A DNA stretch of 64,000 nt from an uncultured Methylomirabilota bacterium (GCA_963845565.1 CAWJSJ010000001.1:224001-288000); one strand, 5' to 3'. Positions 163 through 47,593 are shown, numbered from the stretch's first letter. Notes: a model not told the origin generated them from the letters alone. Translations and numbers: made by a program.

Positions 163-314
163 TCCGACCCCTCGGAGCCGCTCCGAGATCTCAGGCGGTT
201 TCCGCCCAAGCCTTCACGGGGCTTCCTCGGCAGCCACTTCGCTAACCCTCCGGTTCGTCAGTGCGAAGACCGCGTCGGACCCCTCGCCGCGTGGGGTGGA
301 TCTGGTGTTGCATA
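163..314 (+). promoter_or_regulatory. Sigma54-type promoter unit A: tandem palindromic UAS (163-195), IHF-like box (~243), -24/-12 (297-314)
   Basis: TCCGACCCCTCGGA-GCCGC-TCCGAGATCTCAGG; TGGATCTGGTGTTGCATA fits GG-N10-GC; same layout recurs 12 times in the window. Confidence 0.85.
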
Positions 315-406
315 GGCATGGGAGAGAGGACGCCGACCGGAGGGAGCGAGGGGCGCGGGTCCCGCGAGGTGCCGAGGCGTGAGGTTGTCGGAGGGAGGTG
401 GGGGTC

Positions 407-487
407 ATGGAAACCGTGTTGATCATTGTGCTCGTGTTGTTTGTGCTCGGTGGAGGGGGTTGGGGCTACTCGCGGTGGCGCCGGTAG
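407..487 (+). CDS. 26-aa membrane microprotein (METVLIIVLVLFVLGGGGWGYSRWRR)
   Basis: GGAGGT RBS; hydrophobic helix; paralogue at 30885-30971; not in ORF track. Confidence 0.8.
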   Translation: METVLIIVLVLFVLGGGGWGYSRWRR

Positions 488-634
488 CGCGCGGGGCCCC
501 GTGCCGGGCCCCGAGGCACTGTCTTGCTTTCACGGTCCGGCCACGAGCGGCCACCCGAGCGCATGGGGTGCCCCGAGGGTGCCGCGTGCTGGGACGGACC
601 ATCAGACACAGAAACCAGCAGCAGGAGGAATCTC

Positions 635-814
635 ATGAAAGCCAGCACGAAGGACCAGGCGGCAGGCAAGTTTCACGAGGTGAAGGGCAAGGTCAAAGAG
701 ACGGCGGGACGCCTGACGAACAATCCCGACCTGGAAGCCGACGGCACTGCGGAAAAACTCGCCGGCAAAATGCAAGACAAGATCGGCCAAGTCGAGAAGG
801 TTCTGGGGAAGTAG
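635..814 (+). CDS. csbD: CsbD family general stress protein
   Basis: MKASTKDQAAGKFHEVKGKVKETAGRLTNNPDLEADGTAEKLAGK matches the CsbD pattern; AGGAGG RBS. Confidence 0.85.
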   Translation: MKASTKDQAAGKFHEVKGKVKETAGRLTNNPDLEADGTAEKLAGKMQDKIGQVEKVLGK

Positions 815-933
815 GCACGCGACGGAGCAACCGCCGGATCGCCCTCGGGGCCGCGGTTGGCGGTGGCGATCCGGAGCAGGAGCATTCAGCAGATGGCGCG
901 GAGGACTGCACATCGCAAGACGGGAGGAGAGAC

Positions 934-1740
934 ATGAAGCGCTTTGTCGTAGCAACCGTGGGATTCGTTGTCGGCGTCGGTTTGTTGTGGGGCTGCGCCT
1001 CCATGCAAACCTGGCCCGCGAGTGAACGGAGCGCAGAGAACAAGATGGCGCTCATCCAGGAAGAGATTGGGGACGGGCTGAAAACCGGCGCGCTGACCCC
1101 CGATCAGTCCCAGAGTTTTCTGACGAAACTGAAGGTGATTCACACCGACTATACGGCACTGCGAGATAAACCGGTCTACCGGGAGGAATGGAACGGCCTG
1201 CAGGCCAGACTGGATGCACTCGGAGAGGACGTCAACAGGGCGCGTGCCCGGACCACCCGTCGGGACGACCCCCGCAATGGGGATCGGATCGTCGCCCTCC
1301 AGCGGCGCCTTGACGAGGGGCGCAGCGACGGGCGGCTGCCGCAGCCCGAGGGGCGCGACTTGCAGGCCCGCCTCGACACCATTCGGGGGGATTATTCCCG
1401 GATGACGGACGGCGGACGAACCATGTCGTACGAGGAGCAGGACCGCGTACAGGGCCGGTTGGTTGCCCTCGACGCAGATGTCACCAGGGCGCTGGCCCCG
1501 ACCGCCCGCCGGGACGACCCCCGCAATGGGGACCGGATTGTCGCCCTCCAGCGGCGGATTGATGATGGACGGAACAGCGGGCGCTTGCCACAGACAGAGG
1601 GGAGAGAACTACAGGCTCGACTCGATGGCATCCGGAGCGATTCTTCGCGGATGACGGACGGCGGCAGAGGCGCGACGTACGCGGAGCGCACGGACATCTC
1701 CCGTCGGCTGGATTCAGTGGAACGGGAACTCGATCGCTGA
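934..1740 (+). CDS. Putative lipoprotein with ~83-aa internal helical repeats
   Basis: Signal peptide ending LLWGC; RDDPRNGDRIVALQRR block repeated 249 nt apart; GGAGGAG RBS. Confidence 0.7.
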   Translation: MKRFVVATVGFVVGVGLLWGCASMQTWPASERSAENKMALIQEEIGDGLKTGALTPDQSQSFLTKLKVIHTDYTALRDKPVYREEWNGLQARLDALGEDVNRARARTTRRDDPRNGDRIVALQRRLDEGRSDGRLPQPEGRDLQARLDTIRGDYSRMTDGGRTMSYEEQDRVQGRLVALDADVTRALAPTARRDDPRNGDRIVALQRRIDDGRNSGRLPQTEGRELQARLDGIRSDSSRMTDGGRGATYAERTDISRRLDSVERELDR

Positions 1741-1912
1741 GGGGAGCGGGTGCTGCGCGCGGGGCCGCCGCGGTCGTGTCTCGCTGAGGCGACGCCGCCC
1801 GGCCCCGCAACCTCGCCGTGATCCGCCACGGCCAGCGCGGGGAGCACCCGGGTGTCACGAGGAAGTACACCCGGGGATTCGCTACGGATAATCCGAACAG
1901 AGGAGGGCAGCC

Positions 1913-3832
<1,920 letters not shown>

Positions 3833-3945
3833 GCGGACCAGTGCCGGGGAGCGGTGGGCCGATCTCGGTGTGACACGGCCGCAGGTCTCGGAGGCGCCCG
3901 GCTCCGATGGTCGCCGCCCGGCCGAGACGCAACAAGGAGGGCACG

Positions 3946-4749
3946 ATGCTACGGAGTATGAAGAAAGAGCTCAAGGGGTTCACGATCGGCGCGACCGATG
4001 GGGACATCGGCACGGTCATGGAATGCTATTTCGACGATGCGAGCTTCACGGTCCGGCATCTGGTGGTCGACGCTGGGAGTTGGCTGAGCGAGCGCAAGGT
4101 CCTCATCTCGCCGCAGGCCCTCCGGGACGTTGATTGGGTCGGCATGCGTATCTACGCGGCATTGACCAAGGCCCAGGTGGAGCAGAGCCCGGCAATCGAC
4201 ACCGACCGGCCGGTCTCGCGCCAGCACGAGATCGCGTACTACGACTACTACGGGTATCCGTATTATTGGGCGGGCCCGTACCTGTGGGGTGCCGATCCCT
4301 ATCCCGTCCCGCGCGCGGGCCGGGCGATGAGCTTCGAGAACGAGCGGCGCTGGGACTGGGCCGGGGAGCGCGGGGATCCGCATCTCCGGAGCTCGGCCGC
4401 CGTGACCGGCTACCACATCGCTGCCACGGACGGCGCGATCGGGCATGTCGAGGACTTCCTCGTGGACGAGGCGACGTGGGCGATTCGCTACATGGTCGTG
4501 GATACGAGCAACTGGTGGTCCGGCAAGACGGTACTGGTGTCGCCGGAGTGGATCGCGCGCATAGACTGGAATGAGTCGAAGGTGCACGTCGATTTGACGC
4601 GCGAGCAGATCGAGAACAGCCCGGCGTTTGATCCCGCCGAATCGGTGCAGCGCGACTACGAGACGCAGCTTTTCGACCACTACGGCCGGCCCCGCTATTG
4701 GAATGACTTACGAGACGAGGCACCGTCGTCGCGCCGCCGCGCCGCCTGA
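3946..4749 (+). CDS. Tandem PRC-barrel domain protein
   Basis: Two ATDG.IG.V.D barrels, HLRS motif; paralogue at 28313-29087. Confidence 0.85.
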   Translation: MLRSMKKELKGFTIGATDGDIGTVMECYFDDASFTVRHLVVDAGSWLSERKVLISPQALRDVDWVGMRIYAALTKAQVEQSPAIDTDRPVSRQHEIAYYDYYGYPYYWAGPYLWGADPYPVPRAGRAMSFENERRWDWAGERGDPHLRSSAAVTGYHIAATDGAIGHVEDFLVDEATWAIRYMVVDTSNWWSGKTVLVSPEWIARIDWNESKVHVDLTREQIENSPAFDPAESVQRDYETQLFDHYGRPRYWNDLRDEAPSSRRRAA

Positions 4750-8950: not shown

Positions 8951-9311
8951 CCGGGCAGCGTCTCGGCGAGCCTACCCCCGCCCCCCAGCCGTTACCAGCG
9001 CCGCACGTTCGGATGTCTGGTGGGGAACGGCTCACGCGTCGTGTGTCGGTCCTCGGTCGATTCTCGGGCAACGCGCTTCCCATTCGCCAATCGTCGGGAA
9101 AGGTGACAGATTTCGCCACGACGGAAATGCGACCCCCCGACGCCTGTTCTGCCGTACGTGGTCGTAACCGTCGAGCGCCATTGGCAAGGCTGGATCAAGA
9201 GACCGGCTGTTATGGGTGTGCCGTGATCACGGCACATTGTATGCTCCCTCATCCGGAGGAGTCGAGCGGGTCAGGCGTGGCAAGCGCAACAGGGAGGAAG
9301 GGGGTAGGGTG

Positions 9312-9605
9312 ATGCATGCGGAGGTGAATCACGACAAGCTGAGGACCGCCTTTATTGCGGGGCGACTTGATGCCGCCAGTGAGCGGGGCGAGACGATTCC
9401 GGATGGCGTAGAGGTGCTCATGAGAATCGTGCTGGGCGAGGCCGATATCAACGTCTTAGCGCAGTACGCGAAGGTGCTGTTCCAGGAGACGGCGAAACCT
9501 GCCGTCTCGCCCATGGCATCGGTCCGGGAAGAACGAGGGGAGGTCCCCCGGAACGGCCAGGGTGTCGGCGGCGTCCCGGTCCCGCCGAGTCTCTTGAGGA
9601 CGTGA
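9312..9605 (+). CDS. Hypothetical protein
   Basis: Protein-like composition; no family recognised. Confidence 0.4.
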   Translation: MHAEVNHDKLRTAFIAGRLDAASERGETIPDGVEVLMRIVLGEADINVLAQYAKVLFQETAKPAVSPMASVREERGEVPRNGQGVGGVPVPPSLLRT

Positions 9606-9874
9606 ACGGACTGAACACCGCGTCGGTGGCACCGCGCTGCACGGAATCGAGGGCGGAGGCGATCCTCGGGGAACGCTGTCACGAGCGTCGGGAACCACGT
9701 CGGCACTCGGGGTGTCTCTAGCGCCTGCAATCGCTTGATCTCTTCTAGCACCTCAGCCTTGTTGATCACACCCTTTTTCTCTAAGACATTCAGCAGGGCT
9801 TCCAGTTGGAACGCTTGGGCGAGGACGACTTCTTCCAGTGGGACCGTCTGCCTACCGCCCAGGACCGTAGCCAT
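9329..9874 (-). CDS. Hypothetical protein; probably only the first ~55 aa (…LEALLNVLEKKGVINKAEVLEEIKRLQ) are real
   Basis: GGAGGTG RBS and amphipathic helical N-terminus; the remainder looks like read-through, so the end is uncertain. Confidence 0.4.
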   Translation of the reverse strand: MATVLGGRQTVPLEEVVLAQAFQLEALLNVLEKKGVINKAEVLEEIKRLQALETPRVPTWFPTLVTAFPEDRLRPRFRAARCHRRGVQSVHVLKRLGGTGTPPTPWPFRGTSPRSSRTDAMGETAGFAVSWNSTFAYCAKTLISASPSTILMSTSTPSGIVSPRSLAASSRPAIKAVLSLS

Positions 9875-9923
9875 CGTCACCTCCGTGGTGGTCCGCGTCG
9901 TATGCCTCCCGTTGGTGTATCAA

Positions 9924-10204
9924 CTACGCCTCAACAAATCGGCGGAGGAACAATTCTCGCGTCACGGCGGTCGGTTGCGCCTCCAGGGTCGCCAGGAGTT
10001 CCGTGAGCCGGTCCACGGGAAGGTTGACCCGGTCCGCGAGTTCCATGAGCGCCAGGGCGTGCCGTTCGTCGGGGGCCGCGCTCGGGTCTCGGCCATCGCC
10101 GCGTGGATTTCTGCCAACAGATCGGCAGACACCTCCCCGGCCTCGACGGCTTCCGCGACGCGACGCAGCAACCACGTCTCGAAGGGCTCGGTTGGATCAG
10201 GCAT
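9924..10204 (-). CDS. Hypothetical helical protein, one frameshift near 10070
   Basis: MPDPTEPFETWLLRR… joins DERHALALMELADRV… in an adjacent frame. Confidence 0.45.
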
Positions 10205-10411
10205 GCGCGTCTTCCACCCCAGAACGGAGGTATCAATGACCAACATCCAAGAAGTAATCTTGGGAGCGCGTGATGGACTTGCCGCTGGCGCAGTCAAAGT
10301 TCCTGGACAGGATTATCCAACTTTGGCGACACATGCTGCAGATGCAACGCGGATGGGATCAATCAAGACAGCACGTTGAATGCCTGGATTGGCGTGAAGG
10401 TCCCCCCCAAA

Positions 10412-11084
10412 TGACTATTATCCAGTCATCGTAGGTGGGTACCATTATCTTATATCTTCGCGGCGACGAAGCCTGCCTTACGCCAGATGGGCTCATCGAT
10501 CCGACGGCCTTACTCCAGGCCATGGGTTTCCCCGCGGCGCCGGTGGCGACCACACCTGGGGTGGCGCGGCCACAGCTTGGGCCGGACGTCGGGCCTTTGG
10601 CAGCGCCTGCGGCTGGCACGGCGGGCAGGTCGCTGCGGCCTTCACGTCCATCACTTGCTTCTTCAGCCCCTGGTTCTCTGCCCGCAGCGCGTCCAGCTCC
10701 TTGGTGGTGGCCTGCGACGCGGCGGGCTCTCGCTGTGCCTCTCTCGGCGCGGCCGTGGGGGCTGGCGGGGTGTGGAGTCCGGTCATCACCGCGCCACCGA
10801 GGACCGCCACCGTCAGCAGTGCCCCAGCCGGAACACCGAGCAGAAACAAGCGTCGGCTCCCGGCAGCGGTGGATTCCCAGGTGATGTACTCCACTTCGGT
10901 CGCATAGTACTCGCGGTATTCATAATGCCGGCGTCCAGCGGTTGGCCAACCACCCAAAGAGTCCCATCTGGCAACTCCCTGCTCGAACGCCTCTGTCGCC
11001 GATTGGTTTAGGATTTATGGTAGCCGAGCAACCCCACCATCGCCAGCCTTCGTTCAGGGCAGCCCATCCGAATACGCCACCAGG
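10412..11084 (-). repeat. Inverted duplicate of 24417-26046, carrying one repeat unit instead of twelve
   Basis: Both flanks and the ORF match the reverse complement of the 24.4-26.0 kb segment. Confidence 0.9.
10493..10967 (-). CDS. Membrane-anchored protein with a single ASQATTKELDALRAENQGLKKQV unit and CPPC/Pro-rich tail (1-nt frameshift near 10925)
   Basis: Paralogue of the 24532 gene; ATG at 10967 aligns with its MGLFGWLA start. Confidence 0.65.
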
Positions 11085-11984
11085 AAGTCTCCAGAGTCGC
11101 CAGGAGCACGTTCATGGCCCCAGCGCGGTATATCCCCCCCGCGATGTTTCGGAAGGGTGCGCGTTGGTGCGGTGCCCGTGCCGGTCTGAACCGGGAGGAT
11201 GCCATTGAACCTCCTGGTGGTGCGCAGAGGACTAGCGACGACAGATGCCGGGCTTCTATTGGGAACGGTGGCTGCGTGGGCCGCGAGTGGGCAGCGCCCC
11301 CAACGGCAACACCGAATCATGCAGGGAAAGGTGAGAAGAAAGTACGCCGAGCGCCGCTGGCTTTGAACGATGGACGGCAGTGCCGCGAGGTGCTGCAGGG
11401 TGTCGGCGAGGGCCGCCCGCTGCGCGACGGTGAGCGTCGTGAACCGGAGGCCGCTGCGAGCCACGAGGCGGGATTCGCCTCCCCCGCATGCGCTTCCACC
11501 CGGACCGCGCTGCATGATACGATGATCACGTCACCGCCGAGACGTTCGCGCCTCCTGAGGGGCTACAGCGGCTCGCTGACGCGCCTCATCTTCGCCGGGT
11601 CCCCAAAGAAACGCTACGAGCAGGAGGCCCAGCCAAGCGCCAAGGGCGACGGTAACGCAGATGAGCGCCAGACGTTTCATCGTCATGCCCTCTAGTCCCG
11701 CGCGGCACGATCCATCGGGGGTGACGATCAAACCCTAAAGAACGGGGGCCTGGTGTCAAGCGACATTCCTCTGCCGCGGGCCGTTGGGCCCGTCTGGGGG
11801 ATCCGGTGACACGCAGATGGACCCACCCCCCGGCCTGATCCCGGTGTCGATGACCGGTGCAGTCCTGCTCCCGACTGAGGTTGAGTTTACGGCTGGGACT
11901 CGCCGCGGGAAGTGGTGGCGCCGCCAGGGGGCGATGGAGCGGCGGACGGAAGACGGTGCCCACGGCATCGTCAGGGGAGATGCC

Positions 11985-12152
11985 ATGAGATTGCTTGGAG
12001 ACATCCTCAGCATCTTGGTCTTCGTGTCGGCGCTCGGCCTCGCCGCCGTCGCCGCCGGGGTGGGGCTCGATGCGTGGTGGTGCCGGTGCGAGGCCCTGGA
12101 GCCGCGGAAGGCGTCACCAGACGGAGGGAGCCATGACGCGGAAAGCGCCTGA
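11985..12152 (+). CDS. Small hydrophobic hypothetical protein
   Basis: GGGGAG RBS, one TM helix. Confidence 0.4.
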   Translation: MRLLGDILSILVFVSALGLAAVAAGVGLDAWWCRCEALEPRKASPDGGSHDAESA

Positions 12153-12327
12153 ACCCCCGGTGCTCGTCTATCGTGGCCTGCACCGGTGCGATCAATGCGG
12201 CGGGCCGCTGGCCCCGGGGGAGATCGGCGGGATCTGCAGGAAGTGTCGCGACGCACTCCCCCGGCCACGCCGACAGCCGACGCGGCGGAAGCCCCCTGGA
12301 CGGCCACCTGAAACAAACTCGCCTTAG
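12133..12327 (+). CDS. Small putative zinc-ribbon protein
   Basis: CDQC…CRKC; GGAGGGAG RBS. Confidence 0.45.
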   Translation: MTRKAPEPPVLVYRGLHRCDQCGGPLAPGEIGGICRKCRDALPRPRRQPTRRKPPGRPPETNSP

Positions 12328-12392
12328 CGTGTCCTGAGAGGAGCGAACCCTGTGTTCAAGGACCTCTGCCACCAGAAACCGAACGTGCGGCG

Positions 12393-12602
12393 GTGAGCAC
12401 CCTTGTGGTAGCATTCCAGCAACCACTCCGGCCGTGTCCGGTCTGCGGCCAGGCCATGCTGGGGCGCCGAACGTCGGCCTGCTCTGACAAGTGCCGCGCC
12501 ACCAAGAGGCGGCGACAAAGGACCGAGACGCAGACGGAGCGGGATCAACGAGTGCGGGAGGTACTGGAGGCGGCGATGGGGGCGATGGCAGCAGAGGGAT
12601 GA
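12393..12602 (+). CDS. Small putative zinc-finger protein
   Basis: CPVC…CSDKC followed by a basic helix. Confidence 0.5.
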   Translation: MSTLVVAFQQPLRPCPVCGQAMLGRRTSACSDKCRATKRRRQRTETQTERDQRVREVLEAAMGAMAAEG

Positions 12603-12677
12603 GTACGGGGGTGGACGGTGGATTTCCCCCAGGTGAGTCGTACTTTGTTATACGGCTACCTGGCAAGGGAGTGAATC

Positions 12678-13142
12678 ATGACCTGGCTAATCGTGGGACT
12701 GCTCGCTCTGGGTATTTCTGCTTCTGGGTGCGCCAAGACAGTGAAAGATGTTGCTCCAGTATTCACCAGGGCCGGATGGTACAACATGTCCGTCAAAGAG
12801 GACGACGGCGAGCCGGTAACCCAATACAGCCTGTGGGTTGCCGAAGTGGACAGTGATCACACCGCTGCACAACACTACGCGGAGACCATGGCCCCGCACC
12901 CGGGCACACTCCAGATATGTATTGTCCCGAATTTGTCCCTCTACAGTTACCAGTGGTCCATGCTCATTCGGGAAACAGATGAGGCCGGCACGATCAAGGA
13001 CGGCAAGGTGTTGGATTCCTATGAGAACTTCCTCTATACAAGACTATACGGCAACAGCTACGATTGCTGGACCACGAAAATGTTACCCGCCGTGTGGTAT
13101 CGCATACAGGTGACCAAGTTCTGGTATGACGAAGCAAAGTAA
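12678..13142 (+). CDS. Hypothetical lipoprotein
   Basis: Signal peptide ending ASGC; visibly lower GC than flanks. Confidence 0.7.
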   Translation: MTWLIVGLLALGISASGCAKTVKDVAPVFTRAGWYNMSVKEDDGEPVTQYSLWVAEVDSDHTAAQHYAETMAPHPGTLQICIVPNLSLYSYQWSMLIRETDEAGTIKDGKVLDSYENFLYTRLYGNSYDCWTTKMLPAVWYRIQVTKFWYDEAK

Positions 13143-13327
13143 GGAACGGATCTTCCTATGGCGGCTAGACGCCCCCGGGGAACGCACCGCAGCGGGCTAT
13201 TCTAAAGAGGTACGACCCATGCGGTGCGCCCGCTGTGAGGCGGACTTTACTCCCAAGAACGTGCGCGGCTGGCGAAGGCGCTCACGGTGACGGTGGGAAA
13301 GCTGGTGGAGTGAAGGGGGGCCACGCG

Positions 13328-13576
13328 ATGAAAGTGGCACTCAGCGCATCCTGGGAGCTGACCACAGAGCACGCGGCATCGATCGCCGGCCAGCCGGTGC
13401 TGGTGCATCGCGGGACGGGGGAAGCCTACGCCCCCTGGGACGTGTTGCAACCGTTTCCGTCCTGGGCGTGGTCCACGGCCGCGGTGGCGGTCGCGCGGTT
13501 GGCCAAGCAAACACACCTCGACGCGGACGGCGCGGCGCTGGTGGCGCGGTTTGTCGGGCGCCTGCCGCTCGGGTAG
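13328..13576 (+). CDS. Hypothetical protein
   Basis: Purine-rich RBS; flanked by ~30-bp direct repeats. Confidence 0.5.
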   Translation: MKVALSASWELTTEHAASIAGQPVLVHRGTGEAYAPWDVLQPFPSWAWSTAAVAVARLAKQTHLDADGAALVARFVGRLPLG

Positions 13577-13671
13577 GAGGCAGGCGGCCCGCACGATGAC
13601 GGTGGGGAAGTTGGTGGAGTAGCCCGGTCGGGGACGACAAAGAGTGGGCTTGAAGTGGAGGCACAGAACCG

Positions 13672-13896
13672 GTGAGCGAGCCACCCATCTACAAAAAGCA
13701 CCGAATCCACACCACACGGTTGTTCAGCGGACCCTGGATTAGCCTGATCGTGAACATGGGAAAGAAGACCGTCCCCACCAAGGACGCCCTCACGGACACC
13801 GTGACGCGCGTACCGGGAGAATACGCGCTGGAGGATGAGGCCATCCAGGCGGCGAGAGCCTACATCGATCACGAGGTGAGGGAGGCCCCGGAGTAG
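13672..13896 (+). CDS. Hypothetical protein
   Basis: GGAGG RBS, GTG start, protein-like composition. Confidence 0.5.
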   Translation: MSEPPIYKKHRIHTTRLFSGPWISLIVNMGKKTVPTKDALTDTVTRVPGEYALEDEAIQAARAYIDHEVREAPE

Positions 13897-13963
13897 ACAA
13901 CCCCAAACGGAAGACGCCCCCGCGGATGCGTGACCGGACCGGGCGTCGAAAGGATGCGGTGCG

Positions 13964-14278
13964 ATGGCCCGACTCGCGGGGCAACCGACAAGGAACCCCT
14001 TCGTGACCCTGGTGACCATGCTGGACGATGATCAACTGACGGAGTGGCTTCGGATCCTGCCCGAGTTGGGGCCCGTCGGGAGGCAGGCGCACGCGGCAAC
14101 GAAAAAGGCGATGATCGAGACACACCGGACGTTAACCGTGCCCGAACCGACGCGGCCGGTCACGGTGGACCGCTCCACCTGTCGGCAGCGGGCGTGCTAT
14201 TGCCACGATGACGCGGTGTGGGTGCCTGGTGTCTTCGCGGGCGGCTGTTCCTTGTGTGGCTGTCGGCGGGCAGAGTAG
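13964..14278 (+). CDS. Hypothetical protein with Cys-rich C-terminus
   Basis: C…CYC…CSLCGC. Confidence 0.4.
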   Translation: MARLAGQPTRNPFVTLVTMLDDDQLTEWLRILPELGPVGRQAHAATKKAMIETHRTLTVPEPTRPVTVDRSTCRQRACYCHDDAVWVPGVFAGGCSLCGCRRAE

Positions 14279-14989
14279 GAGGCGACCATGGACCGCGTGT
14301 CTCTCCGGGCGAAGGACGTGGGTGCCGAGCCGACTCTGCGCGGGCAGACCGGGTGGGCGCATCGCCCGGCAAACGCCATGAGCGACACCTGGGGTTGTCA
14401 CGCGGACAACGCAACGCGCGTGCCGTGCAATCGGAGCCCAATAAATCTGGCCAATCAGAACCATGCACGAAGCGTCGCGACGGCCCCCCACATCGAACCC
14501 CAATGCGGGCCATGGGCGCGGGAGATGCTGAGGCCAGCCATGTCTGGACCAAATCGCCGCCCGGAACGCTCTAACCTACTCAAACAATCCCCTTGATTTC
14601 GACCTTCCAAATGCCATCGATTCCCGCTCGGAATGCGGGGGCCTACGGCAGACGCCCCTTCGCGACGAAGACCGTCCCCCGGACGTTGAATGCAAGCGCG
14701 GCTGCCACCACCGGGGCCACCACCGGGCGTATCCCCCCTGAGGTACGGCCAGCGCCACAACCCGGGCCGGCACGAAGGATCGGTGTGCGCCGGGCGCGTT
14801 GCGTAGAACGCCGGGCGCTGCCCAACGCCTGTCCGCACCTGATCCTCGAGAGGCATCGTCGCGCCCCCCTTTTCTGCGCACCGGGAGTCCCGTTCCCGAG
14901 GGGCTCGGGGGACGCAGGTGCGCCCGAAGGCACGCCGAAAGATGACGGCATTCGTAGGGCGGCCGTCTCCAGATTTCCCGGGTCGGGCG

Positions 14990-15557
14990 CTATTGGGGCG
15001 GTGGGGGGGGCGGCGGCGGGAGGGATTGCGAAGAAGCGGGCGGCCCGGGACGAGAGCCGGGCGGGGGCGGGGGCGGCGGCGGTGGTGGTGAGTCGATCCG
15101 TCGATGCTGCTGCACCGCCCCTGGAATCTGGTTCCCGTTCGCATACATGCACTGCTGATACGCGATATCGTACCGCCGCTGGGCGTCCCATCCGTAGGCG
15201 TGCCCGGCGTTGGCGCCCACCGCCGTACCGCCCAACAGGCCGCTCCCGGCCCCGATGGCCGCCCCGATGCCGGGGTTCCCAGAGGCGGCACCGATCGCCG
15301 CCCCCAGCCCGGCCCCGAGGACCGTCCCGAGGACCGCGCCGGCGGCCGTGTTTTGATTGACGGTCTCCTGGGGCGACAGGCCGATTTGCTGGCCCGCCCA
15401 CTGCCGGCAGGTCGCGTCTTCGGTCTGGAATTGCTCAAAGGGTTTCCCGGCGGCGGGCCAGTACCATCACGCTGGGGCCCGTCGGCAGGGTGGCACAACT
15501 GCTCAGCGCCAGTGCCGACAGTACGGCAAGGCCGAGGAAGCATCGCGGACGCCGCAT
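14990..15557 (-). CDS. Glycine-zipper lipoprotein (frameshifted)
   Basis: LSSC lipobox, PTGPSVMV, GAGLGAAIGAASG zipper, YDIAYQQCMYANGN, poly-Pro tail; 3' end approximate. Confidence 0.75.
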
Positions 15558-15566
15558 CGTTCCCTC

Positions 15567-16380: not shown

Positions 16381-16405
16381 ACGGGTTCGATTCCCCTCCG
16401 GGTCC
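16381..16405 (+). other. tRNA T-arm/3'-end-like fragment (possible att scar)
   Basis: GGGTTCGATTCCC followed by CTCCGGGTCC; no recognisable 5' half or CCA. Confidence 0.3.
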
Positions 16406-32919: not shown

Positions 32920-33069
32920 TCCGAGATCATGGAGTCGGTCCGAAATCTCGGGCGGTTCCCGCCGCTCACGCCGCAGCGAGGTCGCCGCGGCATCCTGGCC
33001 AACCCGGCGTTTTCACCGGGGGAACCCGCGGCGAGACGCACGAAGGGGGATGTGGACCTCCGTTTGCAC
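32920..33069 (+). promoter_or_regulatory. Sigma54-type promoter unit F
   Basis: TCCGAGATCATGGA-GTCGG-TCCGAAATCTCGGG; TGGACCTCCGTTTGCAC (33053-33069). Confidence 0.8.
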
Positions 33070-33143: not shown

Positions 33144-33323
33144 ATGCTACTGCTCATTCTTCTACTGGTGGTGTTGTTCGCCGGCGGCGGCGGCTATTAC
33201 GGGTATTCCCGCTGGGGGACCGGCGGGGGCCTGGGGATCCTCGGGACGGTCCTGCTCGTGGCGGTGCTCGTGTACCTGCTCGGTGGGATGAATTTCCCTG
33301 GCAGGATGCATTTCCCGGGGTAG
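33144..33323 (+). CDS. DUF3309-like small membrane protein, 59 aa
   Basis: MLLLILLLVVLFAGGGGYYGYSRWGTGGGLG…; AAGGAG RBS; not in ORF track. Confidence 0.8.
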   Translation: MLLLILLLVVLFAGGGGYYGYSRWGTGGGLGILGTVLLVAVLVYLLGGMNFPGRMHFPG

Positions 33324-33891: not shown

Positions 33892-34358
33892 GCGAAAGAA
33901 TGGGCGGCATCGATTCACCCCATTCTAGCTCCGCCCACCCGGGACGCCATTAATTGAGCAAGAACACGGCGTCTACTGGGGGGCGCCCAGGAGCCTCTTG
34001 TCGAATCCTGCCTCGGCGGAGCCCTGTCTCGACGGCTATTCCGCACCCGGCGCACGCGACACAATCTTCTGCGCGCTTCTCTCTTGACATCCTCACGATA
34101 CTGCCTAAATTCTATAGTAGGAGGTCTATCCATGTATCCCCCCTGGAGACGGCAAGGGCCGGGTGGGATGGCGTACCGGGAAACGTCGAGGCCCCCGTCG
34201 GTTCGCTCATGACCGGTGGGGGCATTTGTGTTTTTTCGAGGACGTTTCACCCAGCATGAAGGGCGTGCTCAATGCCCCGTTCCTCCACCCAAGGGAAAGG
34301 CGGGAATCGTGGGCGCAGGGCGGGAAGAACGTCGGCACGTCGTGAGGAGGTGGCCCAC

Positions 34359-34430
34359 ATGGCGAAGGCGCCTGGAAAGCCGCAACCTGGGAATCCAGAA
34401 CCGGGGAAGCCACAGCCGGGTCCAAGATAA
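34359..34430 (+). CDS. Putative 23-aa peptide MAKAPGKPQPGNPEPGKPQPGPR
   Basis: GAGGAGGT RBS; pentapeptide repeats with synonymous variation. Confidence 0.4.
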   Translation: MAKAPGKPQPGNPEPGKPQPGPR

Positions 34431-34526
34431 GGGAGGCCGGCCACGAGCCGAGGAGGCGCTGCGCCCCGGGCGAGGGGATCAGCTTGGTGAGGATGCCCAG
34501 TCTGATCCTGGCGAGGGGGAACACAC

Positions 34527-34928
34527 ATGGCGCACGACCACGGGAAGGAATATCAGATCAGCATTGTCCACGAGGACGGTACGGAGGAACTGAGCGGGTG
34601 GATGCAGCGCGAAGAGCAGGTGGCGCCCGCGATGGCGGCGATCCACCGGCCCCACGGTACTGCGTACTGGCTTCGGGAACGCAACGTACTCTGTCCCGAC
34701 TGCCGAGAAAGGGACCAGGGAATCTCGGAATATCCCCTGACGGCGATCCCGTCGCCTCGATACCGCCCCCACGACTCCGGGTATCTGCTGGTAGCGGGGT
34801 GGCGGAACCGGTCCGAGGTGCCCCCGCCGCGGCTGACACTTCTCGCGCAAGAAACGACGACGTTGGTGTCGATGGGATTAGAGATCGTCGCCGCCTCGCA
34901 GCGAGTTATATCCAAGCGAGCGGCGTGA
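34527..34928 (+). CDS. Hypothetical protein (CPDC motif)
   Basis: GAGGGGG RBS; protein-like composition. Confidence 0.5.
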   Translation: MAHDHGKEYQISIVHEDGTEELSGWMQREEQVAPAMAAIHRPHGTAYWLRERNVLCPDCRERDQGISEYPLTAIPSPRYRPHDSGYLLVAGWRNRSEVPPPRLTLLAQETTTLVSMGLEIVAASQRVISKRAA

Positions 34929-34970
34929 GCGTGGGGGGGTCCCGCCGCCCAAGCTGAGTGTCACCTCCCG

Positions 34971-35121
34971 TCCGACCGATCGGAGGTTCTCCGAAATTTC
35001 GGGCGATTCGTGGCGTGGCTTCCCTCGCCTGTCGCCCGCCGCATCCCCGTCAACCATTTATTTCCAAACGGTGAACGCCGTGTCGCGCCCACGGCCTGGC
35101 GGGCTGGATCCGGTGTTGCAT
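34971..35121 (+). promoter_or_regulatory. Sigma54-type promoter unit G
   Basis: TCCGACCGATCGGA-GGTTC-TCCGAAATTTCGGG; CAACCATTTATTT at 35051; TGGATCCGGTGTTGCAT (35105-35121). Confidence 0.85.
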
Positions 35122-35415
35122 GTTGTGGAGTAGGCTCACAATTTCACCTGCTGCCGGGCCCCGCGGCTGCGCGGACACCCAAGCGCGAGATTGGGCGCGC
35201 CGAACCCAGAACCGCGGCTGCGGGGAACAAAAAGGGGGCGCGGGGTCGTGGACTTGGTCACCCGACGCGACTCCGCGTCCCTCCGGAGGATTCCCGTGGA
35301 GCTCACAGTTGCTCTGAACGAATCTGGTTCTGACCAACGCCGTGCCCGCAATGAGAGTTTGCCCGGAACGAGAGGTCAGGACAAGGTGCGCCTGACTGTG
35401 CGAAAGGAGGAGAGC

Positions 35416-36123
35416 ATGCGACGTGTTGTCTGGATGACGGTTGTGATTCCAGGGTTGGTGCTGCTGGTCTCTGGGTGCGCGACACGAGACTGGGTACGGG
35501 GATACGTGGCGCCGAAAGAGCTCGATATCGACCAGCGCATTGCGAAGGTCGAAGGGAAGGTCGGCGAGGAGACCGGGCGCATTGACCAGCGTATCACCGC
35601 GACAGAGGGACGGGTGACCGCGGGAACCCAGCGTATCGAGGGAATGAACGGCCGCATGAACACGCTCGAGACCTCCATTGGAGAGGCGGGAGAGGGGGCC
35701 AAGGTCGCTCGGGAGCGCGCGGACACCGCCGTGGCCAAAGCGGACGAGACCGATAGCCGGCTCACGCGTCTGTGGGACAGCCGCAACAATTGGAGCCTCG
35801 TGGAAACCATTGAGGTACCGTTCCGCTTTAACCGCTGGGACCTCAGCGATAAGTCCGAGACGGCTCTCGTGGGTTTGGTCCGCGAGCTGAAAACGAACAA
35901 TAAACTCGCCGTGGTCCTCGAGGGGTACACGGACCCGAGCGGGGACGCGGAGTACAACCTCCAGCTCAGTCAGCGCAGAGTCGAGACCGTGCGGCGGTTC
36001 CTCGTAAAGCAAGGGGTGGAGCTACCGCGGATCCATGCCGTCGGCCTGGGCCCGATCCTCGATCCCGCAACCCCCAAAGAACAGAAGCGCCGAGTGACGG
36101 TAAAGCTGACGCTCGCCGAATAG
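35416..36123 (+). CDS. OmpA family lipoprotein with coiled-coil N-terminus
   Basis: VSGC lipobox; EGYTDPSG…YNLQLSQRR…RRV. Confidence 0.9.
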   Translation: MRRVVWMTVVIPGLVLLVSGCATRDWVRGYVAPKELDIDQRIAKVEGKVGEETGRIDQRITATEGRVTAGTQRIEGMNGRMNTLETSIGEAGEGAKVARERADTAVAKADETDSRLTRLWDSRNNWSLVETIEVPFRFNRWDLSDKSETALVGLVRELKTNNKLAVVLEGYTDPSGDAEYNLQLSQRRVETVRRFLVKQGVELPRIHAVGLGPILDPATPKEQKRRVTVKLTLAE

Positions 36124-37226: not shown

Positions 37227-37378
37227 TCCGACCCCTCGGAGGCGCTCCGAGATCTCGGGCGATTCCCGCTTACGCCTCGCTGGAGATTCCACCGCAGCAT
37301 CCGGTCCAACCACACGATTAATCAGGGCGGAGACCCCGTCAGCCTCAACGACCCGGGGGGTGGATCTGGTGTTGCATA
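37227..37378 (+). promoter_or_regulatory. Sigma54-type promoter unit H
   Basis: TCCGACCCCTCGGA-GGCGC-TCCGAGATCTCGGG; TGGATCTGGTGTTGCATA (37361-37378). Confidence 0.85.
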
Positions 37379-37531: not shown

Positions 37532-37606
37532 ATGTATTCGATCGTCTACATCGTGGGCGCGGTGGTCATCGTTATCGTGGTGTTGAAGATGGTCGGGCTC
37601 TACTAG
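37532..37606 (+). CDS. 24-aa membrane microprotein (MYSIVYIVGAVVIVIVVLKMVGLY)
   Basis: GGAGGAGG RBS; paralogue of 26672 and 45207. Confidence 0.8.
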   Translation: MYSIVYIVGAVVIVIVVLKMVGLY

Positions 37607-37607
37607 G

Positions 37608-37651
37608 CCGGATTATTCACGAAGGATTCGTGAATAATCCGGGCTTACCTG
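37608..37651. repeat. Perfect palindrome CCGGATTATTCACGAA-GGA-TTCGTGAATAATCCGG, copy 1
   Basis: Identical to the copy at 47357-47403, including the trailing GCTTACCTG. Confidence 0.9.
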
Positions 37652-37889: not shown

Positions 37890-38477
37890 ATGGCACGGGG
37901 AACGGTGATTGCGGTGTTGGCGCTGAGTCTGGGGATGCTTGCGGCCCCCAACCTCGCCGCCCAGGGGACGGCCAGCGGCGAGATGGCGTCCGCAGAGCGA
38001 GCGGTCAAGAACGCCGGGGCGACCGCCACGCGGGAGGTCACGGACTCGTTTCTCACCCTCCAGGCCAAGCTGGCCTTATTCGCGGACGAACGGGTCAGCA
38101 GCGGTGACGTCCACGTCACGACCCAGAATGGGGTCATTACGCTCCGCGGGAAGGTGGACAGTGAGACGGAGCAGCAGGCTGCCGGGGAGATCGCGCGAAC
38201 CATCGAGGGCGCGCGGGACGTGAGCAATCAGTTGACGGTGGTGCCGCAGGCAGAACGAAAGGCGGTCGAGCGGCAGGATGACCAGATCGTGAAGGACGTG
38301 AAGCGGGAGATCAAGAGAGATGCCGGTCTGAAGAAGGCCCGCATCCATGTGCGTGCAGACGACGGGATCGTCACGCTCACAGGGAAGACCCCATCGCTTG
38401 AGACGAGCGTCCGCGCCTCCGAGACAGCCCGCCGGGTGTCCGGTGTGCGCGCCGTGCGGAACGAGCTTGCGTTGTAG
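37890..38477 (+). CDS. Double BON domain protein
   Basis: Paralogue of 21596-22150. Confidence 0.9.
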   Translation: MARGTVIAVLALSLGMLAAPNLAAQGTASGEMASAERAVKNAGATATREVTDSFLTLQAKLALFADERVSSGDVHVTTQNGVITLRGKVDSETEQQAAGEIARTIEGARDVSNQLTVVPQAERKAVERQDDQIVKDVKREIKRDAGLKKARIHVRADDGIVTLTGKTPSLETSVRASETARRVSGVRAVRNELAL

Positions 38478-38677: not shown

Positions 38678-38881
38678 ATGTCCGTTGCCAAGATTTCAGA
38701 AATCAGTGCGACGTCGACCAAGAGTTTCGAGGACGCGATCCAGCAAGGGATTACGCGCGCGACCCGGACGCTACGGAACGTCACAAGCGCGTGGATCAAG
38801 GAGCAGCATCTCCGCGTCGAGAACGGACGGCCGGCAGAGTACCAGGTGAACATGATGGTGACGTTCGTGCTCGACGATTAG
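38678..38881 (+). CDS. Dodecin family protein
   Basis: MSVAKISEISATSTKSFEDAIQQGITRA…EYQVNMMVTFVLD. Confidence 0.9.
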   Translation: MSVAKISEISATSTKSFEDAIQQGITRATRTLRNVTSAWIKEQHLRVENGRPAEYQVNMMVTFVLDD

Positions 38882-40912: not shown

Positions 40913-40929
40913 TGGGGACAGGGGGAAAT

Positions 40930-43298: not shown

Positions 43299-43685
43299 AG
43301 CTTCAAGGCAGCGTCGGAGCCATCCGTCCTAAACACCACGAGCGCCGAACAGAGCCCGGCGCTCGTGAGAGACGCGCCCCACTGCGGGATCGCGCGTCCA
43401 CTGCTCAGCCGCCCGATGATCCATCCCACTCGCCAACGCTCGTTCCACATTGGTTCCCGAGGGCGGCTTGAGGCCCCGGCGGAGTGTCGGCACAGGGCGC
43501 CCGTCCGTATCCTCGCGCAACCCCCTGTGTCTCTGCGGGCCTCCCGCCGACGGGACGTCCCGACGGCGGGAGGCGTCGTGAGGTTAGGAGCCGTTACGAA
43601 ATAACGTGTCCATTTTGTGCAATTTCGTTACGGCTCCTTATGCCGCTCCCGAATTTCTCCGGTCAAGTTATTCTTTGACAACCGC

Positions 43686-44029
43686 TTACTTGGGACTGCT
43701 GGGGGAATTCGCACCCCCCACGTCGATGATGCGGGCGACCTTCTGCCCGCCCTGTTCGCTATATGTCACTTGGACCTCTTGGCCGATCGCCGGGGCGCTC
43801 GTGTACTCCAAGGAGGGGGCGAGCGTGAACTGCATCCCGGTATCGAGAGTCAAGGTCCGTTGGTCGAGATCGACAGCCGTGATCTTACCCGTGGCCGACA
43901 TCTCCATCTGGCGCGTCCCCGTCTCGGGCATCGTGCCGGCCGTGCCTGCTGGAGTCCCCATCTGGGCGACCGCGGGCGCGGCCGCCAGTAGAAGGCCAAT
44001 CAGGGTCGATGCACCGCACGCTTTTTCAT
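43686..44029 (-). CDS. Exported DUF1344-like beta-barrel protein (frameshift in signal peptide)
   Basis: GKITAVDLDQRTLTLDTG…GQEVQVTY; AAGGAG RBS. Confidence 0.65.
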
Positions 44030-44620: not shown

Positions 44621-44770
44621 TGCAAGGACAGGTCCACATCACTCGTCAAGCGCCTCGATGTGGTCTCCGCCCTGTGAAGCCGACAGGTTAGCCCGAGGGC
44701 GGCGGCGCGCTCACCACGCCTAGCTCGGCGCGCACCGTCCGAAATCTCGGATCGCCTCCACGATTTCGGA
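44621..44770 (-). promoter_or_regulatory. Sigma54-type promoter unit I- (leftward)
   Basis: Minus strand TCCGAAATCGTGGA-GGCGA-TCCGAGATTTCGGA; TGGACCTGTCCTTGCA (44636-44621). Confidence 0.8.
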
Positions 44771-44971: not shown

Positions 44972-45121
44972 TCCGACAGGTCGGAGGCGCTCCGAGATCT
45001 CGGGCGGATCGCGGCAGACCCGTCGCCAAGAGGCCGACCCGCCGCGCCGCCAACTCCTTGTTTCCAAGGCCCGGTGCGCTCGGCAAGCTCCCGGCGCGCT
45101 GGCTGGATCTGGCTTTGCATA
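44972..45121 (+). promoter_or_regulatory. Sigma54-type promoter unit I+
   Basis: TCCGACAGGTCGGA-GGCGC-TCCGAGATCTCGGG; TGGATCTGGCTTTGCATA (45104-45121). Confidence 0.85.
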
Positions 45122-45206: not shown

Positions 45207-45281
45207 ATGAGTTCGATCGTGTACGTCGTCGGCGCAGTCGTCATCATTGGTGTTGCGCTGAAGATGCTGGGCGTCTATTAG
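45207..45281 (+). CDS. 24-aa membrane microprotein (MSSIVYVVGAVVIIGVALKMLGVY)
   Basis: GAGGAGG RBS; third paralogue. Confidence 0.8.
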   Translation: MSSIVYVVGAVVIIGVALKMLGVY

Positions 45282-45425
45282 GGCGCGGGCCGGATCCGCC
45301 AGGCGCCACGGGGGTCGGGGCCCGGATGTCGGTCGCGCGGCCCTTCTCCGGCCGCCTGATCGCTGGGTTGGTTTTGCGCTTGTCTTTAACAAGCAAGTTG
45401 GTGTACGGGTTAAAGGGAGCCACCC

Positions 45426-46013
45426 ATGACGCTGGGAATCGTGATTGCGGCGTTGATGCTGAGTCTGGGGCTGTTCGCAGCCCCCGGGTTCGCCGCCCAA
45501 GGGCCGGCCAGAGACCCAGTGGTATCCACCGAGCGTCCGATGAAGGCCGACGGCACGACGGCCACCGGTGAGGGCACGGACTCCCGGCTCACCCTCAAGA
45601 CCAGGCTGGCGTTGCTGGGCGACGAACGGGTCAGCAGCAACAATGTAAGCGTGACGACGGCGAAGGGCGTGATCACGCTCCGCGGGCAGGTGGCCAGTGA
45701 GGCCGAGCGGCAGGCCGCGGAGGCCGTCGCCCGCACGATTGAGGGGCAGCAGGCGGTGGTCAACCACTTGACGGTGGTGCCGCAGGCGGTTCGCACGGCG
45801 GTCGAGCGCCGGGACGACCAACTCGTGACGGACGTCAGGCAGGCGATCACGAAGGAGGCGTCCCTGCGGAAGGCCACCATCGAGGTCCGCGCGGAGAAGG
45901 GGGTCGTCACACTCACGGGGAAGGCCCCGTCGCTTGAGACGAGCGTTCGCGCCTCCGAAGTGGTCCGCTGGGTGTCTGGTGTGCGCGCCGTGCGGAACGA
46001 GCTGGCGTGGTAG
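45426..46013 (+). CDS. Double BON domain protein
   Basis: Paralogue of 21596-22150. Confidence 0.9.
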   Translation: MTLGIVIAALMLSLGLFAAPGFAAQGPARDPVVSTERPMKADGTTATGEGTDSRLTLKTRLALLGDERVSSNNVSVTTAKGVITLRGQVASEAERQAAEAVARTIEGQQAVVNHLTVVPQAVRTAVERRDDQLVTDVRQAITKEASLRKATIEVRAEKGVVTLTGKAPSLETSVRASEVVRWVSGVRAVRNELAW

Positions 46014-46296
46014 GGCAAGGGCGCGTGCCGCCAAGGGGACGAGGGGGAATTCTGCATGTTGTGGGTCGGGGACGAAGGCATCGCAAGAAACATCCGGGAG
46101 ACGTGCCGATGAGCGAGACTCCCGTCCGACCGCGATGGCCGGCGAAACCCTGGGCGGTTCGGTCGAAAACGGATGCAAATCTCCGAACGAGGGCGCTCGG
46201 CGTGATCGGTCTCTCTGGAATGGACGCCTTCGCGTGACTGTGGAGAAGACGCGTCTCACGACACCACGCGCACATCCCGCACAGTCAGGGTGCCGG

Positions 46297-47358
46297 ATGG
46301 GCCGATCGCGCACGTTCCCGCCTTTCGTGGCGCTCGCGGTTGTAACCGTTGTAACACTTGTGGCGACTGCGTGCATGCGGTTTGCCCCGAATTATCCGAC
46401 AACCCACCTGGCTGCCCACCGGCCCGACCTGCCCGTCCCAACTGGCTACGAGTACCGGAAAACGGCTTCCCCGGTGACTCTGGAACGTCAGAGCATCTCT
46501 GCCGACGGACGGTACGAGACCTATGTCCTCACGTTGCCCTCGGTGGAAGGCAATGGACAGGGTCCGCTTCCCGCCAGCGTGCAGTACCTGAAGTTGAAGA
46601 CGCCAGGCAAGAAGAAGCTGGTCATCGTGGTCCCGATCTACGGGAGTGTCAGTTTCGCATCCACAATGACGGCGAGGCACTTGATCGAATGGCAGAAGCA
46701 AGACACGAATGTCCTCTTGATCCTGGATGCAAACGAGATTTTTGACGGAGATGTCGAACGAGCCCCGATCATGACCACGGAAGCAGAGCTCCTTCAGGGG
46801 GTGCAGCGGTGCGTGACACGATTCCGTAATGCCGTGATTACCATCCGGCGGTTGATCGACTGGGCGGAAACGGTGGACGAGATCGACGCGGCGCGCATCG
46901 GGGTTGTCGGCTTCTCGATCGGGGCCTCCGTCGCCAACGTCGCGATGGGGGTCGATGCGCGGATCGCCGCCGGAGCCTTCGTGCTTCCCTCAACGAAGCT
47001 GCACGAGATCTTTGCCTACGGCCGCGTGCCGCACTGGAAAGAGTCGATCGATCGCGCCCGCGCGAACTTGCAGCTCACTCCCGACGAGCTCGCGCAGAAG
47101 GTGGAGCCGATCCTTCGGTCCATCGACCCGATTCACTTCTCGAAATCCATTGACCCGACCAGGGTGCTGCTCATCGAGGCGGCGCAAGACAGTTACGTGC
47201 CCGTACACGCGCGGCTCCTCCACTGGGAAGCCCTCGGGAGACCCCGGCTCATCCGGATCGATTACGACCACAAGGTCGCCTTCCTGTTGTCGATGACCTT
47301 CCTCAGCCGACATTTCACCGCAACGGCTATCGCGGAATTCTTCGACGAAACCCTCTAG
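46297..47358 (+). CDS. Alpha/beta hydrolase-fold putative lipoprotein
   Basis: ATAC lipobox-like site; RIGVVGFSIG nucleophile elbow, D and H downstream. Confidence 0.7.
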   Translation: MGRSRTFPPFVALAVVTVVTLVATACMRFAPNYPTTHLAAHRPDLPVPTGYEYRKTASPVTLERQSISADGRYETYVLTLPSVEGNGQGPLPASVQYLKLKTPGKKKLVIVVPIYGSVSFASTMTARHLIEWQKQDTNVLLILDANEIFDGDVERAPIMTTEAELLQGVQRCVTRFRNAVITIRRLIDWAETVDEIDAARIGVVGFSIGASVANVAMGVDARIAAGAFVLPSTKLHEIFAYGRVPHWKESIDRARANLQLTPDELAQKVEPILRSIDPIHFSKSIDPTRVLLIEAAQDSYVPVHARLLHWEALGRPRLIRIDYDHKVAFLLSMTFLSRHFTATAIAEFFDETL

Positions 47359-47403
47359 CCCGGATTATTCACGAAGGATTCGTGAATAATCCGGGCTTAC
47401 CTG
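47357..47403. repeat. Perfect 19-bp-arm palindrome, copy 2
   Basis: AGCCCGGATTATTCACGAA-GGA-TTCGTGAATAATCCGGGCT. Confidence 0.9.
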
Positions 47404-47444
47404 CGTGTGCGCCGCGCGGGGCGCAGCGGAATGGCACCTCACCC

Positions 47445-47593
47445 TCCGAGATGTCGGAGTCGCTCCGAGATCTTGGACGTTTCCTTCCGGTACCTGCGGG
47501 GGGAGTCCAGCGAAACATCCCCTCAACCACCCGATTCCATGGATGGAGATCGCGTCGTCCTGCTCGCCGAGAGGAATGGATCTGGATTTGCAG
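47445..47593 (+). promoter_or_regulatory. Sigma54-type promoter unit J
   Basis: TCCGAGATGTCGGA-GTCGC-TCCGAGATCTTGGA; TGGATCTGGATTTGCAG (47577-47593). Confidence 0.85.

Follow-up and report, generated by a model that had tools for sequence, protein, structure and literature searches.

Which protein reads a promoter that recurs a dozen times at one locus, and what does it switch on there? This question is raised by a stretch of 64,000 nucleotides (nt) from an uncultured Methylomirabilota bacterium (GCA_963845565.1 CAWJSJ010000001.1:224001-288000; the whole stretch is hereafter called the window). An original prediction, made from the sequence alone, had described twelve copies of a TCCGA-type palindrome pair with a sigma54 promoter element between positions 163 and 47,593, and had attributed them to a general stress or dormancy programme run by one bacterial enhancer-binding protein (bEBP). 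We analyzed the genome assembly (G000; 5.36 Mb in 6 contigs, with many frameshifts), in which contig C1 holds the window; the names of homologues placed the host in Methylomirabilales. The twelve window promoters were part of a set of 22 in the genome, and it is probable, judging from sequence comparisons, that up to 22 promoters form one sigma54 stress-protection regulon under an FhlA-like bEBP encoded in the same island.

All twelve operator pairs were recovered where, and on the strand on which, they had been placed. Each promoter consisted of two 14-bp palindromes of the TCCGA-N4-TCGGA type with a 19-bp period, followed by a -24/-12 element 99-101 bp after the pair. The predicted sigma54 element was likewise found behind every pair, as TGG-N9-TGC in 12/12 with the first G of the GG 101-103 bp after the pair, and the -24 GG and -12 GC with 10-bp spacing were present in all 22 genome promoters. 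The claim that the arms are kept held for five of the twelve, which have four perfect arms, but not for the other seven, in which one arm carries 1-2 mismatches. The gap was 99-101 bp in the host and 99-103 bp in relatives; elsewhere, 48 of 60 motif matches had a gap of 95-101 bp (89-113 bp permitted). Such palindromic sequences about 100 bp upstream of the element are the standard bEBP promoter layout, according to the accessible text of PMC7175178. The -24 element itself is atypical (TGGAT, not TGGCA), and the island holds 16 of 43 TGGAT-type matches vs 1 of 31 TGGCA-type matches.

The original prediction had described the pair and the sigma54 element correctly but had overlooked a predicted IHF-like site between them. 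In 20/22 promoters, the best match to the IHF consensus was on the opposite strand, with 53-54 bp between it and the TGG of the -24 element downstream. These sites scored 6-9 of 9 consensus bases, and at least 8 of 9 were matched in 8/22 promoters vs 11/1100 shuffles. In contrast, the spacer DNA between the elements showed a mean pairwise identity of only 56% (49% for shuffles), so the elements have been kept while the intervening DNA drifts. The gene rpoN, on which the prediction depended, was present as a single copy, and the genome has five HU/IHF-family genes. A word-based search of RNA libraries returned 13 runs, none of which contained half of the words. RNA-library contigs, assembled from four runs of relatives, covered pieces downstream of promoters and also extended across an operator (34713-35163). 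A neighbouring stretch at 34131-34620, upstream of a 133-aa open reading frame (ORF) and with a sigma70-like TTGACA at 34085, was covered in 4/4 runs, although contigs reveal neither level nor strand. Rfam gave no match, and a structured RNA was rejected.

A weight matrix of the arms alone, trained on the 12 window sites, gave 21 sites in the genome, and each was flanked on just one side by a sigma54 element. In 2 Mb of Markov-simulated sequence, scanned on both strands, no site reached 22 bits. The 22nd site, located behind the activator gene described below, has a 6-bp spacer, possibly a homopolymer error of the frameshift-rich assembly. Thus, the tally of twelve was right for the window but had left out ten promoters outside it. 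Twenty-one of the 22 promoters lay in one 123-kb island (C1:208,458-330,970), and the outlier was on contig C2, about 390 bp after tRNA-Leu. All 22 were intergenic, with the next gene predicted by our own gene caller on the same strand. A motif-free scan for any 5-N4-5 palindrome pair with a 19-bp period 92-105 bp upstream of 549 sigma54-like sites yielded 18 sites with at least 18/20 matches (17 with TCCGA arms and one with GCCGA), and the TCCGA promoters ranked first among the 549. The repeats are almost certainly sigma54 promoters of one regulon.

Among the 31 strong bEBP matches of the genome, one candidate activator lies just past the window. The gene ends at C1:290479 (window-equivalent 66479), and an operator pair stands 13 bp behind the stop codon. 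The encoded protein has the layout PAS-GAF-AAA-HTH, with a GAYTGA loop, given as an active GAFTGA variant in the accessible part of PMC6615313, and a last helix reading NPTTLESR. The GAF, AAA and Fis-type HTH domains were supported by Pfam and Atlas, and a predicted structure placed PTTLESR on the last helix (residues 491-500); this helix occurred in one of the 30 readable bEBP C-termini of the genome. Fold and structure searches returned generic AAA, GAF and ABM folds only and no ligand. The claim of one bEBP acting with sigma54 was well supported, and the bEBP can be named: the regulon is very probably read by the PTTLESR FhlA-like protein of the island.

The activator is preceded by genes for CheB-CheR, a kinase, KaiC, KaiB, KaiB and a PAS protein, a cluster that we regard as a candidate signal input. 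In the window (+ strand), the cluster occupies 56606-63602 (CheB-CheR-PAS fusion, PAS hybrid histidine kinase, KaiC and two KaiB), followed by the PAS protein at 63599-64000, which is truncated where the window stops; the activator gene comes next, beyond the window. The N-terminal coiled coil and PAS of the kinase (59291-59820, +) were recently copied onto the N-terminus of the activator (L004:1317-1960), the two being 98% identical. Most activator homologues are 521 aa long without this extension, and a few are 690 aa long with it; one other locus (L097) has the same kaiB-PAS-activator order.

A motif scan across species (one genome per species; gaps of 89-113 bp allowed) retrieved 56 loci titled Bradyrhizobium and other Alphaproteobacteria, Acidobacteriota, Verrucomicrobiota, Competibacteraceae, Ignavibacteriales, Myxococcota and Methylomirabilota, a few of them probable chance matches. 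A related bEBP was encoded in 19 of these 56 five-kb loci, and the 15 readable helices comprised 12 PTTLESR and three near variants. Since loci chosen by the motif are biased by it, we tested sets chosen by the protein. Among 79 metagenome loci selected by protein alone (80 retrieved; L117, with its stop at the contig end, was left out), the operator pair was present at 7/7 PTTLESR bEBP loci vs 0/72 others. In 121 genomes of Bradyrhizobium (the genus of G251), the activator occurred in four, and the three new ones all carried the pair 2 bp after the stop codon, with a sigma54-like element 97-100 bp further on. Within the host genus, the activator was found in 7/20 genomes, six with the exact pattern and one (G008) with a degenerate pair, vs 0/13 pattern matches in genomes without it. 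Across 251 genomes of the phylum, the pattern occurred only in those six and G000. Further, in several phyla the pair lies directly behind the stop codon of the PTTLESR bEBP gene, and TCCGA pairs number 1-4 in five genomes of other phyla. Judged by these matches, the distribution is patchy over several phyla. Two Myxococcota loci (L058:2501-2750 and L066:2501-2657) have three tandem TCCGA-N4-TCGGA sites, one upstream of a RadC-like gene, and may represent a separate regulon.

This patchy distribution does suit accessory DNA. None of the genome's four tyrosine recombinases is on C1 (the search did not extend to transposases and serine recombinases), which gives no sign of present mobility. Nor did the island show other hallmarks of an integrative element: no tRNA gene lies near it, and its GC content is 62-70% vs 66%. 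A plasmid search gave no match at 1e-80 and 56 records at 1e-60, all below 60% identity. A satellite of the island lies by tRNA-Leu (L007:10757-14900), with the promoter, an ABM gene, a cytidylate-kinase-like BON protein and USP.

Paralogues with other recognition helices had different arms and the same period and distance. The PTTLEAR helix went with CCCAA arms at 3/3 fetched loci, and the host's own frameshifted PTTLEAR gene with a CTCCAA pair of 20-bp period; PSTLRSR went with CGCGA arms, in a clear pair at 2/5 loci. Four combinations were seen at one locus each: RTTLQSK-GCCGA (L103), PSTLYSR-GTCGA, SSTLRSR-GGCGA and PSTMRAR-CGTCA. In the host, an RTTLQSR bEBP was matched by a GCCGA pair 31 kb away, which is followed after 100 bp by a sigma54 element and then by an ABM gene. 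When 137 bEBPs were placed in a quick tree, the TCCGA-bearing proteins fell into one 29-row clade (Shimodaira-Hasegawa-like approximate likelihood ratio support, SH-aLRT, 99), which includes four changed-helix members without the TCCGA operator; E. coli FhlA is outside it. The PTTLEAR type had one clear pair per genome in the three genomes carrying it; given this number and the 1-4 TCCGA pairs of other phyla, expansion to 22 is special. On contig C5 of the host, tandem FhlA-like bEBPs (RTTLQSR and the frameshifted PTTLEAR) are encoded at 642333-648992, the latter being followed by a palindrome pair of its own and by ABM and sulfatase-like genes. Downstream of C5:367697, three CGCGA/CGTGA-like palindromes lie behind a PSTLRSR bEBP, together with a canonical TGGCAC element.

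How could one lineage have come to hold so many copies? In loci of Methylomirabilota, Alphaproteobacteria, Ignavibacteriota, Verrucomicrobiota and Acidobacteriota, the gene that directly follows the activator and promoter often encodes an ABM-fold protein of about 105 aa. We infer an ancestral cassette made up of the activator gene, an operator pair after its stop codon, a sigma54 promoter and the ABM-fold gene. Remnants of the activator 3' end precede four promoters (z-scores of 34, 12, 7.9 and 5.1). The one before promoter 5 (26058-26362, +) is an AAA fragment and HTH end with an internal deletion and about 94% identity to the intact gene, and it abuts the promoter; eroded remnants precede C1:208458, 321185 and 222101. 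The 19 promoters without clear remnants gave 15.2 vs 13.7 matches of 30, a weak signal to which C-rich composition may contribute. Further, promoter-plus-gene modules were paralogous at 70-89% identity, including four BON modules and five DUF3309-like microprotein modules. The twelve copies originally counted are real, but the prediction had missed that they are partly paralogous, and they do not represent twelve independent origins.

In relatives, G009 has 15 promoters in 70 kb and 53 of the 125 island proteins in shuffled order; G005 has nine promoters in 86 kb, 42 of the 125 proteins, also shuffled, and four activator copies. In each of these two genomes, a single pair seems to be shared by two divergent promoters. 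In G014, a single contig with 98% completeness, the activator is accompanied by at least seven promoters. Because eroded activator 3' ends stand at promoters, the regulon probably grew by copying of the promoter behind the activator.

Pfam bore out the gene families that the original prediction had listed downstream (CsbD, BON, DUF3309, YtxH and OmpA). In the window, the cargo comprises CsbD, five BON genes, DUF3309-like microproteins, DUF948-YtxH, OmpA, PRC-barrel, dodecin, DnaK, a trehalose-phosphate-synthase family gene and YihY; elsewhere in the island are USP, RNase II, DedA-type, Ysc84, fatty-acid desaturase, AI-2E, MlaD and DksA-like genes. This list includes genes not directly behind a promoter. 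The island holds 14 of the genome's 18 BON matches, all five of DUF3309 and the single CsbD. DUF3309 occurred in 5/8 genus genomes with the activator and 0/13 without it. CsbD, BON/OsmY, YtxH, DUF3309 and similar families mark the RpoS, SigB and EcfG regulons, and general stress programmes are attributed to sigma70-family factors. This stress-type cargo (CsbD, BON and DUF3309), as far as family matches tell, is specific to the host's genus of Methylomirabilales, and a stress-protection output of the regulon is fairly likely. The label general stress is plausible for the host genus by gene content only; in other phyla, the same operator and activator precede other genes. For dormancy, the other part of the claim, no evidence was found in the analysis.

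Several observations weigh against the stress-protection regulon as proposed. G014, with its activator and promoters, had no CsbD or DUF3309 match, and CsbD is present in G015, which lacks the activator; in G002, the 2.6-kb locus with CsbD/DUF3309 showed no operator near these genes. The host genome also encodes an RpoD/RpoS-like sigma factor (below all cut-offs) and extracytoplasmic function (ECF) factors. In other phyla, CsbD, BON, DUF3309 and YtxH were all absent from the 81 downstream ORFs (of 114 called) put through a Pfam-type scan. The helix code misses at PSTLRSR loci without a clear pair and at the ASTLESR locus (L110), which had none. Moreover, the seven PTTLESR metagenome loci are close kin (81-87% identity) and thus not independent.

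The same activator and promoters might instead remodel the envelope or periplasm in response to one cue (acid, osmotic or a metabolite). The 81 ORFs of other phyla, which included 11 sulfatase, 10 ABM, five DUF2092, three OpgC, two HdeA/B, two DUF992 and two outer-membrane barrel genes, speak for this output, as does the secreted or membrane-bound nature of much host cargo (BON, OmpA and lipoproteins); PMC3162934, in its accessible part, argues that sigma54 chiefly controls the cell exterior. Nevertheless, we consider it unlikely in the host, where the island includes the cytoplasmic protection genes DnaK, trehalose-phosphate-synthase family, dodecin, USP and RNase II, as well as GroES/GroEL, FtsH and a cold-shock protein (recognized from sequence, not by the Pfam scan), and such genes recur in islands of relatives. 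Paralogous modules, activator remnants upstream of some and the frameshift-rich assembly would also be expected if most copies were passengers of segmental duplications, with few live promoters. Yet the spacers have decayed to 56% identity, whereas the arms, their period, the position of the IHF-like site and the distance of 99-101 bp were kept, and matching promoter-gene pairings recur in G005, G009 and G014 with shuffled order, which makes this account improbable.

It is still less probable that another host bEBP reads the operator, for example a response regulator like Desulfovibrio DVU3023, whose sites have a TCCG-N6-CGGA core. The genome offers many other bEBPs (one C-terminus being unreadable), the outlying C2 promoter is 3.4 kb from a receiver-type bEBP, and similar single sites are in the DVU3023 and DVU0653 lists. 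However, the pair abuts the stop codon of PTTLESR bEBPs in several phyla, is absent at the 72 other bEBP loci, and did not turn up in the 230 genomes of the phylum that belong to other genera. The C2 receiver-type bEBP was rejected as the regulator. That the promoters are a mobile or dispersed repeat, as multiple copies and traces of copying might suggest, can be practically dismissed: 21/22 copies lie within 123 kb, all are oriented to genes, and Rfam gave no match, whereas a true dispersed repeat of this genome, found in the window at 43584-43690, is present in 189 near-full copies spread over all 6 contigs. A genome-wide motif without orientation, which the original prediction had named as the outcome that would speak against it, was thus not observed, and the mobile-repeat reading was rejected, since the promoter copies are neither genome-wide nor similar over full length nor unoriented.

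In the stress-protection regulon that we favour, two HTH dimers of the activator would bind the two palindromes, as their co-occurrence suggests. If the activator works as is established for bEBPs, signal input at its GAF/PAS region would free the AAA domain, IHF would bend the DNA, and the activator hexamer would open the sigma54 closed complex. As our best guess, a small ligand would act as the signal at the GAF domain, with modulation by the putative ABM-fold partner and, in the present strain, also by the adjacent CheB/CheR-kinase-KaiBC cluster. In the host genus, the promoter would have been copied repeatedly, at times with a scrap of the activator 3' end, and placed before envelope, osmoprotection and protein-quality genes. 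A broader proposal can be put forward only tentatively, and we hold it to be somewhat doubtful as a whole: that a portable cassette with a sigma54 activator gave rise to an entire general stress response in one Methylomirabilales lineage through at least 20 copies of its own downstream promoter in one island, taking over genes run elsewhere by sigma70-type stress factors, and that the wider family shares the promoter geometry, with arms encoded by two or three recognition-helix residues, and so forms natural orthogonal activator-operator pairs.

The activator is an FhlA-like GAF bEBP (group 3). E. coli FhlA and HyfR are among its two best NCBIfam scores and have the same GAF-AAA-HTH layout, and the FhlA helix KRTTLLSR is related to NPTTLESR. 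By eye, 14-bp 5-N4-5 palindromes were also seen in E. coli at hycA-hycB and upstream of fdhF, which we take to be FhlA sites; however, their arms are TGTCG/CGTCA rather than TCCGA, the fixed 19-bp pair was not seen, and the host targets are not formate hydrogenlyase genes. Orthology to FhlA was rejected: the activator scored 374 bits against a cut-off of 830 bits (NCBIfam FhlA), and FhlA falls outside the operator-bearing clade. Further, helix and site were NPTTLESR and TCCGA-N4-TCGGA, not the KRTTLLSR and TGT-N10-12-ACA of FhlA.

DVU3023 of Desulfovibrio is a response regulator for lactate genes. Its sites (and one of DVU0653), TGTCCG-N6-CGGACA, share the TCCG-N6-CGGA core with the host operator (PMC4641369). 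In the accessible part of the supplement of that paper, two sites of the DVU3023/DVU0653 lists are one mismatch from TCCGA-N4-TCGGA and some tandem sites are 19 bp apart. In contrast, the flanks are TG...CA vs C...G in the host, and the listed DVU rows available there included no fixed pair at a fixed distance. Sites of the TGTCC...GGACA type were not found at the host promoters, whose flanks are C...G. As far as these sequences can be compared, the nearest described sites are thus those of DVU3023, with the inner core shared and the flanks not. Regulons of bEBPs tend to be small; those of Desulfovibrio mostly comprise 1-4 operons, with a maximum of 12 (PMC4641369, accessible part). A literature search, with most subscription journals outside its coverage, found no account of the operator, cassette or regulon; novelty is not proven.

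The RpoS, SigB and EcfG regulons share CsbD, BON/OsmY, YtxH, DUF3309, PRC-barrel, entericidin-like, YihY and trehalose-synthesis genes with the host island, but they depend on sigma70-family factors, and their genes are scattered around the chromosome, whereas the host would use sigma54 and an ATP-driven activator in one island. The transmissible locus of stress tolerance and the low-oxygen-activated locus of Burkholderia are accessory clusters of protein-quality, USP, CBS and BON genes, and the island resembles them in this clustering; we know of no such operator or bEBP from either. A sigma54 regulon of stress-marker genes with 22 promoters would, if true, be another route to a general stress programme and an unusual way to run one, binding and stress role being predicted. 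The activator remnants show how the copying of a promoter can enlarge a regulon, and the helix-to-arm matches make DNA recognition by bEBPs open to simple swaps. Since cultured Bradyrhizobium species carry the same cassette, it is open to experiment despite the uncultured host.

The window promoters and the genes behind them were arranged as follows. Promoter 1 (163-311, +) has its pair at 163-195, an IHF-like site at about 243-256 and the sigma54 element at 297-311, and is followed on the same strand by DUF3309-like (407-487), CsbD (635-814), DnaK (1913-3832) and PRC-barrel (3907-4749) genes. Promoter 2 (17992-18139, +), with a first arm of TCCAG, precedes a lipoprotein-like ORF (18245-18469) and DinB (18566-19036). 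Promoters 3 (21171-21319, -) and 4 (21369-21517, +) are divergent; the former precedes a DUF3309-like gene (21096-20935) and an alpha/beta hydrolase (20378-19557), the latter a BON protein (21596-22150). Behind promoter 5 (26376-26524, +) are a 24-aa microprotein (26672-26746) and a frameshifted BON gene, a module paralogous to that at C1:291054. Promoter 6 (30597-30744, +) is followed by DUF3309-like (30885-30971), BON (31153-31467), DUF948 (32035-32439) and YtxH (32432-32743) genes, promoter 7 (32920-33067, +) by a DUF3309-like gene (33144-33323), and promoter 8 (34971-35119, +) by an OmpA-family protein (35386-36123).

Promoter 9 (37227-37375, +) precedes a 24-aa microprotein (37532-37606), BON (37890-38477) and dodecin (38678-38881). 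Behind promoter 10 (44622-44770, -) is a 48-aa DUF3309-like paralogue (44547-44401) with no Pfam match itself; promoter 11 (44972-45118, +) is followed by a 24-aa microprotein (45207-45281) and BON (45426-46013), and promoter 12 (47445-47591, +) by an 87-aa ORF (47754-48017) and a DUF6600 protein (48058-49755). The hydrophobic 24-aa microprotein is thus a conserved first gene behind several promoters, upstream of BON; it also occurs in G005 and G009, and the copy scanned had no Pfam match.

Other repeats were noted in the window. The dispersed repeat at 43584-43690 is 106 bp long with an inner 17-bp inverted repeat; its copies are about 75-94% identical over their length, it had no Rfam match, and it resembles miniature inverted-repeat transposable elements (MITE) or repetitive extragenic palindromic (REP) sequences. 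About ten 84-bp tandem units at 24690-25859 form a coiled-coil coding repeat interrupted by frameshifts, with relatives at 10404-11083 (-) and at C5:610259-610659. The region 9300-16500 is of low GC content, with short ORFs without Pfam matches and without the promoter, and part of it has an 84% identical copy on C2. Finally, a 49-bp inverted-repeat stretch occurs at 37603-37651 and 47355-47403 (98% identical), each time at a gene end.

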